Below, one piece after another: positions 49,799-51,153 of a DNA stretch of 64,000 nucleotides. This DNA comes from Candidatus Omnitrophota bacterium. Its GTDB lineage: Bacteria > Omnitrophota > Gorgyraeia > Zapsychrales > Zapsychraceae. The notes under the pieces are model-generated. The model had not been told where the DNA came from and did no database searches. It saw nothing but the letters and a program-made list of their open reading frames with translations. A program made the translations under genes and the position numbers. How positions within the stretch are numbered: position 1 is the stretch's first letter; each line of letters opens with the position of its first letter. The stretch lies in NCBI GenBank assembly GCA_020632515.1, contig JACKFK010000007.1, forward strand, positions 13,323-77,322, read 5' to 3'.

Positions 49799-50056
49799 CT
49801 ATTCATAGCTTGATTTTCGATGAGAGATTCTTAATATTACAATCAATATTTCTTTTTCCGAAATCTTATATATAACCCGATAATCTCCCCATCGGTACCG
49901 CCAATACCCTTGAAAATTACCTTTTAATGCCTTCCCCAACTTAGTTGGATCTTGTGCTAAATATTTTTCAATTCGGTCCAAAATCTTCTTAATAACTGCT
50001 TTATCAACTCGCTTTAAATCTTTCTCAATCTGATCAGAATAAACAACTCTATACAC
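49799..50056 (-). CDS. RelE/ParE-family type II toxin
   Basis: 85 aa with ...GDYRVIYKISEKEILIVILRISHRKSSY. Overlaps the antitoxin gene by 8 nt. Confidence 0.8.
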   Translation of the reverse strand: MYRVVYSDQIEKDLKRVDKAVIKKILDRIEKYLAQDPTKLGKALKGNFQGYWRYRWGDYRVIYKISEKEILIVILRISHRKSSYE

Positions 50057-50267
50057 CTAAACGACCCCGCAACTCTTTACTGGATATAATCTTACTTTTT
50101 GGATCATTAAAACGATCTTTGGCTATTTGCGCATCAACATAATCTGCAAAATAATGACGCAAGGCTTCTTCAACGTAAAACTTCTCACTACGGTGATTTT
50201 CTTTAGCTATTTTTGATAATTTAGCGACCAATGTTTCTGGCAATCGAAATGCTTTTAAAACAGACAT
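50049..50267 (-). CDS. ribbon-helix-helix type II antitoxin
   Basis: 72 aa. N-terminal beta-strand then helices (KAFRLPETLVAKLSKIAKENHRSEKFYVEEALRHY). AAAGGAG Shine-Dalgarno sequence. Confidence 0.75.
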   Translation of the reverse strand: MSVLKAFRLPETLVAKLSKIAKENHRSEKFYVEEALRHYFADYVDAQIAKDRFNDPKSKIISSKELRGRLGV

Positions 50268-50322: not shown

Positions 50323-50436
50323 TCAAATAAAAGTAAAAACCGCCACTAAAACCGAAACTGGATATGAAAGATATTTAATAAATGGAAGCACCCTAAATAT
50401 CCAAAAATCATATATAAACTTCCAAAAATCTTTCAT
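50323..50436 (-). CDS. 37-aa hydrophobic peptide ORF (speculative)
   Basis: ATG at 50436, TGA at 50323-50325. Translation MKDFWKFIYDFWIFRVLPFIKYLSYPVSVLVAVFTFI. Below the ORF-track size cut-off. Confidence 0.25.
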   Translation of the reverse strand: MKDFWKFIYDFWIFRVLPFIKYLSYPVSVLVAVFTFI

Positions 50437-50455: not shown

Positions 50456-50881
50456 TTATTCTTTAATTCGAAACATTTTTTTATTTTGATTAAAAATAAC
50501 TTCAGTAAATTGATCAAAAAATCCTTTCCACCCTAATAGTCCTGTTCCTTTCATATTCATTTTATAAGAAAACCCTACATCTGCATTAAATTTCCATATC
50601 TCATTTCTAATATATATTCCCACTTTTATTAAATGAAAATATAATATTTCTGATCCTCCAACTCCATAACTGACAATAGGACGGCCTTTTTTAATATCTA
50701 AACCAATGATAGCACCATAATTCGCTGGAAAAACACAAAAAGCTGCACCTGAATCTATAACAGAAAGAAAATCAAATAATGTTTGAGCGTCTTTATAAAA
50801 TAACTTCGTATTTAATAACGGATAATAAACCGTCTTCCTTGGCTTTTTATTTTTTTTTCGTATATGAAAGCGTAGTGTAAC
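50456..50881 (-). CDS. retropepsin-like (clan AA) aspartic protease ORF lacking any start codon, in frame behind the TAA of the upstream gene (readthrough product or pseudogene)
   Basis: A 141-codon open frame that I translated by hand: VTLRFHIRKKNKKPRKTVYYPLLNTKLFYKDAQTLFDFLSVIDSGAAFCVFPANYGAIIGLDIKKGRPIVSYGVGGSEILYF...GLLGWKGFFDQF... It has the catalytic D-S-G-A. There is no ATG/GTG/TTG/CTG/ATT/ATC before that motif. Absent from the ORF track. Confidence 0.6.
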   Translation of the reverse strand, partial: VTLRFHIRKKNKKPRKTVYYPLLNTKLFYKDAQTLFDFLSVIDSGAAFCVFPANYGAIIGLDIKKGRPIVSYGVGGSEILYFHLIKVGIYIRNEIWKFNADVGFSYKMNMKGTGLLGWKGFFDQFTEVIFNQNKKMFRIKE

Positions 50882-51091
50882 TTAATAGATAAACGCGGCG
50901 ATGTTGCCATCGGGAGATTTAATAAGGAAAGGATTTTCAACACCTTTGTTATAAGCTTGATTTAGCGCGGTCTGCATTCGTTTGGAATGTCCAACAACTT
51001 TCTTTTTATCGGAAGATAACGTCACCCATTGGCCAGGAAAAGGTTCAATTAATTGCCCCACATCTGCTAATGGATTAAAAAACTTAGACAT
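50882..51091 (-). CDS. small conserved protein (DUF5678-like)
   Basis: 69 aa with GQWVTLSSDKKKVVGHSKRMQTALNQAYNKGVENPFLIKSP. The family name is from memory. Confidence 0.6.
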   Translation of the reverse strand: MSKFFNPLADVGQLIEPFPGQWVTLSSDKKKVVGHSKRMQTALNQAYNKGVENPFLIKSPDGNIAAFIY

Positions 51092-51153
51092 GTTTTTATT
51101 ATGTACTGCGTTTCCTCTTTTTCAAGGAAAAAATGAAAGTAGCTAACTTTCAC

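Follow-up and report, generated by a model that had tools for sequence, protein, structure and literature searches.

The locus analysed here lies on the minus strand of a 64,000-nucleotide stretch of a Candidatus Omnitrophota contig (hereafter "the window") and comprises an intact DUF5678-like gene, a start-less reading frame that follows it across a single stop codon, and, directly downstream, a pair of toxin-antitoxin-type genes. The features, from upstream to downstream, are as follows.

50882..51091, minus strand: intact gene for a 69-aa DUF5678-like protein, the upstream cistron of the module; stop codon TAA at 50882-50884
50883..50885, minus strand: TTA in the place of the ancestral protease TTG start (TTGA here in 16 distinct close loci; DNA alignment)
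50847..50885, minus strand: what is probably left of the protease N-terminus, read in the -1 frame: (TTA) SYTTLSYTKKK and then TAA
50456..50881, minus strand: start-less 141-codon frame plus TAA, the probable protease pseudogene body (from its translation)
50741..50755, minus strand: catalytic D-S-G-A-A; D codon at 50753-50755, last residue GCT at 50741-50743
50654..50665, minus strand: G-V-G-G, the probable flap-tip equivalent; G79 and G82 conserved in at least 90% of 95 homologues
50528..50542, minus strand: G-L-L-G-W; W codon TGG at 50528-50530, in place of Arg
50049-50267, minus strand: putative RHH/Arc antitoxin of 72 aa; Arc/RHH matches weak (E = 0.002-0.008)
49799-50056, minus strand: ParE/RelE-superfamily toxin (PF05016, E = 1.6e-12)

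ORF analysis and translation confirm the layout described in a first-pass annotation of this DNA: the 69-codon gene ends ...AAFIY-TAA, with its stop at 50882-50884, and the TAA is followed in the same frame by 141 open codons (50459-50881) that close with a TAA at 50456-50458. Given the base composition of the minus strand, the probability of 141 stop-free codons by chance is ~8e-7, and the frame is therefore a real coding, or formerly coding, frame. ATG, GTG, TTG, CTG, ATT, and ATC are, as annotated, all absent from the 42 codons that precede D-S-G, among which two are ATA (codon positions 7 and 42 of the start-less frame), and the annotated run of nine A residues (A9) is present at 50850-50858. 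By NCBI accession numbering, no protein is annotated between the RHH and DUF genes. The AT-richness ascribed to the module is likewise real, with a GC content of 27.9% in the protease remnant, vs. 38.6% in the upstream DUF5678-like gene and 37.8% in the window as a whole. In 12 of 13 intact relatives, the GC content of the protease gene is 3.5-11 points under that of the DUF5678 partner, and the gap of 11.9 points in the window stands at the extreme of the relatives' range. We considered low GC as a mark of decay or of foreign origin and rejected it, since intact relatives have the same protease-below-partner offset; base composition argues that the low GC of the remnant is largely a family trait.

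Three further observations concern the surroundings. A promoter-like site (TTGAAA-16-CATAAT; 51098..51125, minus strand), found by a consensus scan with 10/12 matches and of putative function, has a -10 element that ends 7 nt upstream of the DUF5678-like start codon, an ATG; as a consensus match, it would imply a leaderless or near-leaderless DUF5678-like mRNA, and the number of promoter-like sites in the region is not above shuffle expectation. Between the pseudogene and the RHH gene there is a very hydrophobic 37-aa putative ORF (MKDFWKFIYDFWIFRVLPFIKYLSYPVSVLVAVFTFI; window 50323-50436, minus strand) that has no Pfam match. Directly downstream, at 49799-50267, is the RelE/RHH pair noted earlier, in which the toxin gene and the upstream 72-aa gene overlap by 8 nt and in which the Arc/RHH match of the latter is weak. 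From its sequence the pair looks like a conventional type II toxin-antitoxin pair; it is context, outside the DUF5678-protease module.

The results of profile and structure comparisons indicate that the start-less frame derives from a family of retropepsin-like proteases. The 141-aa translation is 57-74% identical to homologues P0001-P0005, and a family HMM matches the window frame with E = 1.5e-60 over profile positions 10-147. A family profile search found 435 proteins (101-207 aa among the best 120), and an exhaustive search of family representatives at 50% identity found 2,858 at E <= 1e-3 (93-179 aa among the best 150). Of 95 aligned members, 73 match PF13650 (Asp_protease_2) and 29 match PF13975, in each case at E <= 0.01, with a best clan AA E-value of 1e-6; the NCBIfam clan AA models TIGR02281 and TIGR03698 are matched neither by the window sequence nor by any of the 95 members. 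An AF2 model of the intact homologue P0003, on which, rather than on the window copy, we assessed the retropepsin fold, has a pLDDT of 90.7 and a pTM of 0.83. The best PDB match of this model by Foldseek is APRc, with the FIV and HIV proteases next, and its 14 PDB hits at E <= 0.001 are APRc, FIV protease, cathepsin D, and the pepsin-fold allergen Bla g 2. By sequence, the family profile matches FIV protease weakly (E = 0.0074). The claim of a retropepsin-type domain thus stands at the level of the family, through the relatives' Pfam matches and the structure model; the translation from the window itself has no HMM match in Pfam (E <= 1) or NCBIfam. On these grounds, the assignment to clan AA is sound for the family. 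Other matches of these proteins were seen as well: in PADLOC, P0001 and P0003 weakly match PDC-M08B, a candidate defence protein (best E = 4.4e-4), and P0003 has a short, spurious-looking match to Cas12a models (PADLOC, E = 4e-4; NCBIfam, E = 1.5e-3).

The motifs of the frame can be placed on this fold. The catalytic motif V-I-D-S-G-A is at 50744-50761, and its D, S, G, and A are invariant in the 95 homologues. The C-terminal GLLG had been read as a flap-like motif, a reading that proves to be wrong: GLLG belongs to the retropepsin G-R-(D/N) region, here mutated to GW, and the flap tip corresponds instead to GVGG. In the P0003 model, G79 and G82 are at the turn of a hairpin formed by strands 73-79 and 82-97, and we take GVGG at 50654-50665 to be the flap tip by analogy with retroviral GIGG.

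The assignment of the upstream gene is likewise firmer for its family than for the gene itself. The 69-aa protein scores 20.4 bits against Pfam DUF5678 (PF18929), below the gathering score of 23.2 (E = 4.7e-4), so that its own Pfam score falls short of the identity proposed in the first-pass annotation, whereas its homologues support membership of the family: a search found 151 homologues, and many of the best 120 (64-121 aa) carry PF18929 among their precomputed matches. The window protein is 85.5% identical to the partner gene in the first of two module copies at locus L001, and keeps all of the family-invariant residues G20, W22, A46, G50, and P54. A structure model of DUF5678 (pLDDT 84) has no PDB match with E < 1 (best E = 1.4), and the PADLOC defence-system models give no match to the DUF5678 partner. 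A search of the literature on DUF5678, on PF13650, and on retropepsin-like proteins with toxin-antitoxin systems found nothing relevant.

Comparison with related loci shows that the two parts form a conserved pair of separate genes. In HMM scans that covered more than 80 genome loci, 82 of 89 protease-family hits have a DUF5678-like ORF immediately before them. The pair occurs across Omnitrophota, Patescibacteria/CPR, Chloroflexota, and others, usually with an NTGA stop/start overlap (for example, L009:2816-3445 and L027:1647-2242, in a set that ranges from L009 to L087), and the genes that flank it are unrelated from locus to locus. This two-gene DUF5678-protease module is apparently undescribed so far. 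In relatives, a DUF5678-like gene of 64-79 aa is followed by a separate protease gene (~147 aa) whose intact product begins MSYVTLPYTELFIP... The junction is TTGA in 16 distinct close loci, which come from Candidatus Omnitrophota and allied MAGs: the TTG with which the protease starts overlaps the TGA that ends the preceding gene, and the protease is thereby in the -1 frame; in one further locus, TGA is followed directly by TTG; and in distant loci, mostly from Patescibacteria, the junction is ATGA, GTGA, TAATG, or TAAATG. In intact pairs, the NTGA overlap implies that the two genes would be translationally coupled. No fusion-length protein is present among the best 120 homologues of each partner or the best 150 protease representatives, and two long homologues that were candidates for fusions, P0016 (207 aa) and P0027 (196 aa), owe their length to miscalled starts, which extend them over the partner gene in the -1 frame. 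The homologous loci thus answer the question of whether the two parts are fused, divided by a conserved in-frame stop, or separate: they are separate genes with starts of their own. Of the proposal that the frame is a freshly inactivated fusion gene, the recent inactivation stands and the fusion falls, the protease being separate in every intact relative.

The module was observed in several other settings. The Omnitrophota MAG OFTM390 carries two tandem copies (L001:3818-5497), with partners 62-64% identical between copies, and each copy is followed by a conserved ~40-nt motif, TAGTGCCCAAAYGGTGCCCATCTTACACCAAAACAACGG, which is absent from the window region. At L010:50-448, the C-terminal part of a second retropepsin-like gene stands as a separate fragment, without a DUF5678 partner, ~700 nt upstream of an intact module. 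IMG/VR holds only 2 related loci, and there is therefore no phage association.

Against this background, the junction in the window is exceptional: in our junction survey, it alone within the close clade has TTAA without a start. The survey and a DNA alignment show that a G-to-A change made TTGA into TTAA and so killed the protease start while keeping the upstream stop. Three-frame translation shows that the -1 frame in the window reads SYTTLSYTKKK-stop, resembling the MSYVTLPYTE... of homologues, and upstream in this frame there is no canonical start (ATG, GTG, and TTG are absent). The earlier statement that the protease cannot be initiated canonically is thus borne out, and extends to both frames.

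A second lesion accounts for the change of frame. A MAFFT DNA alignment has a single 14-column gap in the window relative to L004, L005, and the first copy at L001, located at A9, and, counted by hand, the stretch between the start position and the PLL Pro codon is 67 nt in the window vs. 81 nt in L005. The 14-nt deletion removes the conserved 'E-L-x-I-P' codons and has the A9 run as its junction; A9 is specific to the window lineage and, in the DNA alignment, absent from relatives. The deletion also moves the remaining 121 conserved codons of the body by one base, so that they fall in the DUF5678-like frame. What looks like an in-frame 'fusion' with a single TAA in it is thus the product of start-codon loss together with a frameshifting 14-nt deletion.

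These results bear directly on the idea that programmed readthrough of the UAA yields a low-abundance DUF5678-linker-protease fusion. The idea draws on the coincidence of the two frames across a single TAA, with 141 codons open behind it, and on the established knowledge that retroviral proteases are produced by readthrough or frameshifting. The frame coincidence, however, is due to the lineage-specific 14-nt deletion; relatives all have a canonical start at or beside the upstream stop, so that the in-frame stop is not conserved; and the homologues listed for both partners include no fusion. The stop in the window is TAA, whereas close relatives all have TGA, and TAA is generally the least leaky stop in bacteria. 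The 111 nt that span the stop and the downstream region fold no better than shuffles (MFE -8.4 kcal/mol; z = +0.86) and have no Rfam match. A readthrough product would, moreover, lack the conserved N-terminal hairpin and carry substitutions at two invariant residues, D53A and R124W. We therefore regard programmed readthrough as very improbable.

The substitutions themselves are as follows. DSGAD is changed to DSGAA (D53A) at an Asp column that is invariant in 95/95 homologues, and GR is changed to GW (R124W) at a position that is Arg in 68/68 close homologues. Of 20 subfamily-invariant columns, 2 are thus changed in the window sequence, where the average sequence has 0.12 such changes; P0068, also of this family, likewise has two. 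We take D53 and R124 of the window, by analogy, to correspond to D29 and R87 of HIV-1 protease, a pairing couple.

It had also been proposed that a sequencing or assembly error has corrupted an intact gene, through a miscount of A9, a miscalled junction base, or both. A frameshift at a 9-base homopolymer is at a classic site of error, and with a single A removed, the N-terminus in the -1 frame would run on into the protease body. Even with A8, however, the start codon and five conserved codons would still be missing, and the substitutions at the two invariant residues do not depend on an indel. The same 69-aa protein, with matching surroundings and identical TTAA and A9, is encoded in four further assemblies (two Logan runs, one NCBI MAG, and one ENA metagenome), which come from different samples; one of the four differs by a SNP elsewhere. 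The lesions, being common to four other assemblies, are therefore not a sequencing error, and we consider this explanation to be next to impossible.

We conclude that the 141-codon frame is very probably a pseudogene of recent origin, left by the decay of the second cistron in a conserved two-gene operon. The pattern that the first-pass annotation had associated with a plain pseudogene is the one found here: homologues carry starts of their own, and the copy in the window carries additional lesions. The intact ancestor would have consisted of a ~69-aa DUF5678-like gene and a ~147-aa protease gene, translationally coupled through a TTGA overlap. A G-to-A change from TTGA to TTAA removed the protease start and preserved the stop for the upstream gene; a 14-nt deletion removed 'ELxIP', formed A9, and brought the body into the upstream frame; and the Asp of DSGAD and the Arg of the G-R motif changed to Ala and Trp. 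The presumed outcome is that no protease is made and that the DUF5678-like gene remains intact and presumably functional.

The inactivation appears recent, since no other stop or frameshift interrupts the 121-codon body. The protease body is no more diverged from relatives than relatives are from each other, and we find no faster divergence of the protease than of its DUF partner: for the window, protein identity minus DUF identity averages +3.8, an offset within the spread of intact pairs (mean +6.9, sd 10.6), with synonymous sites expected to be saturated at ~70% amino-acid identity. Relaxed selection would accordingly be demonstrable only by the two invariant-site changes. No intact copy was found in a close relative (>75% identity), and for this reason the events cannot be dated.

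The good state of the body also bears on the suggestion that low-level expression of the remnant persists by a non-canonical route and that the remnant has retained or acquired a function. Ribosomes might re-initiate at TTA or ATA after termination, or there might be transcriptional or ribosomal slippage on A9, A9 tracts being slippage-prone; the product might serve as a catalytically impaired binding partner, or the gene might be phase-variable. The intact ORF body, no more diverged than other family members, speaks for this suggestion, as does locus L087, where an analogous change of ATGA to ATAA stands before an otherwise intact ORF and hints that weakening of the start may be a recurrent way of turning expression down. 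The suggestion has to contend, however, with the absence of a canonical start in either frame, with the absence of A9 from relatives, which makes the run a mere deletion scar, and with the constancy of its length among five assemblies; restoration would need slippage plus initiation at TTA, and the invariant D53 and R124 are lost in any case. We consider residual expression with a function to be improbable, and the pseudogene reading, under which nothing is programmed at the locus, makes the window an example of a deletion that gives an overlapping bicistron the look of a 'stop-separated fusion'.

Loss of the protease next to an intact DUF5678-like partner recurs at five other loci.

L014:2986-3447: protease nonsense codon; DUF5678-like partner intact
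L051:2998-3432: protease nonsense codon; DUF5678-like partner intact
L025:2992-3425: protease deletion and frameshift; DUF5678-like partner intact
L026:2992-3207: protease truncation; DUF5678-like partner intact
L087:971-1390: ATGA to ATAA, parallel to TTGA to TTAA in the window; DUF5678-like partner intact

Two other loci, L045 and L066, were candidates for disrupted or start-less copies and are intact on inspection. Disruption was flagged in only 1 of 84 DUF hits, and the count of decay events, 6 for the protease vs. 0-1 for the DUF gene, is not statistically decisive, the protease gene being ~2x longer.

The decay asymmetry, the overlap architecture, and the occasional adjacency to toxin-antitoxin genes together suggest a toxin-antitoxin-like logic: that is, that the bicistron is a toxin-antitoxin-like or defence-type module, spread widely across Omnitrophota and Patescibacteria, in which the dimeric aspartic protease is a harmful effector and the DUF5678 protein its co-translated neutraliser. 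We regard this as a tentative proposal that is rather unlikely to be correct. If it were correct, the window would represent a typical end state, in which the effector has been killed by an NTGA-to-NTAA change and the antidote gene has been retained. The ParE/RelE and RHH pair of the window is found downstream of the module in the other assemblies too (L088, L090). In several relatives, small CopG/BrnA-like or XRE-like ORFs, identified by eye, adjoin the module (L013:3558-3824, L015:3877-4149, and L011:3635-3847), which hints that the DUF5678-protease module may tend to sit among toxin-antitoxin-type genes.

Only one lead from this locus deserves mention, a mildly interesting by-product: the gene pair, which is conserved and uncharacterised. 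The pair gives DUF5678 its first functional association, with a bacterial retropepsin-like protease, and it attaches to a protease family of ~2,900 representative clusters, mainly from Omnitrophota and candidate-phyla-radiation bacteria.

Three known systems invite comparison. With type II toxin-antitoxin operons, the DUF5678-protease pair shares a small upstream gene, a larger downstream gene, and a 4-nt overlap; like toxin-antitoxin modules, it occurs in variable genomic contexts, sometimes beside bona fide toxin-antitoxin genes; and, as in the decay of such modules to 'orphan' partners, the downstream protease is repeatedly inactivated and the upstream DUF5678 gene retained. Unlike them, it has in DUF5678 a partner without a recognisable DNA-binding or antitoxin fold (no PDB match), and, unlike toxin-antitoxin and defence systems, it gives a significant PADLOC hit for neither partner (protease, weak, PDC-M08B, E = 4.4e-4; DUF, none). 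With APRc of Rickettsia conorii (RC1339, PDB 5C9F; PF13650/PF13975 type), the protease family shares a single-lobe retropepsin fold, and with APRc-type proteases in general it shares a D-S-G-A catalytic motif, a flap-like G-x-G-G hairpin, and a C-terminal G-R motif. It differs from them as a divergent subfamily, of which the window copy and P0003 themselves match no Pfam model, in having an extra N-terminal beta-hairpin (residues 3-13), and in being nearly always encoded directly behind a DUF5678-like gene; the window copy differs, in addition, in being a probable pseudogene. In the retroviral proteases of HIV-1 and FIV, finally, DTGAD and G-R-N parallel the DSGAD and G-R motifs of the family; and, whereas retroviral gag-pro is expressed by recoding, the relatives of the window copy instead use a start of their own that overlaps or adjoins the upstream stop.
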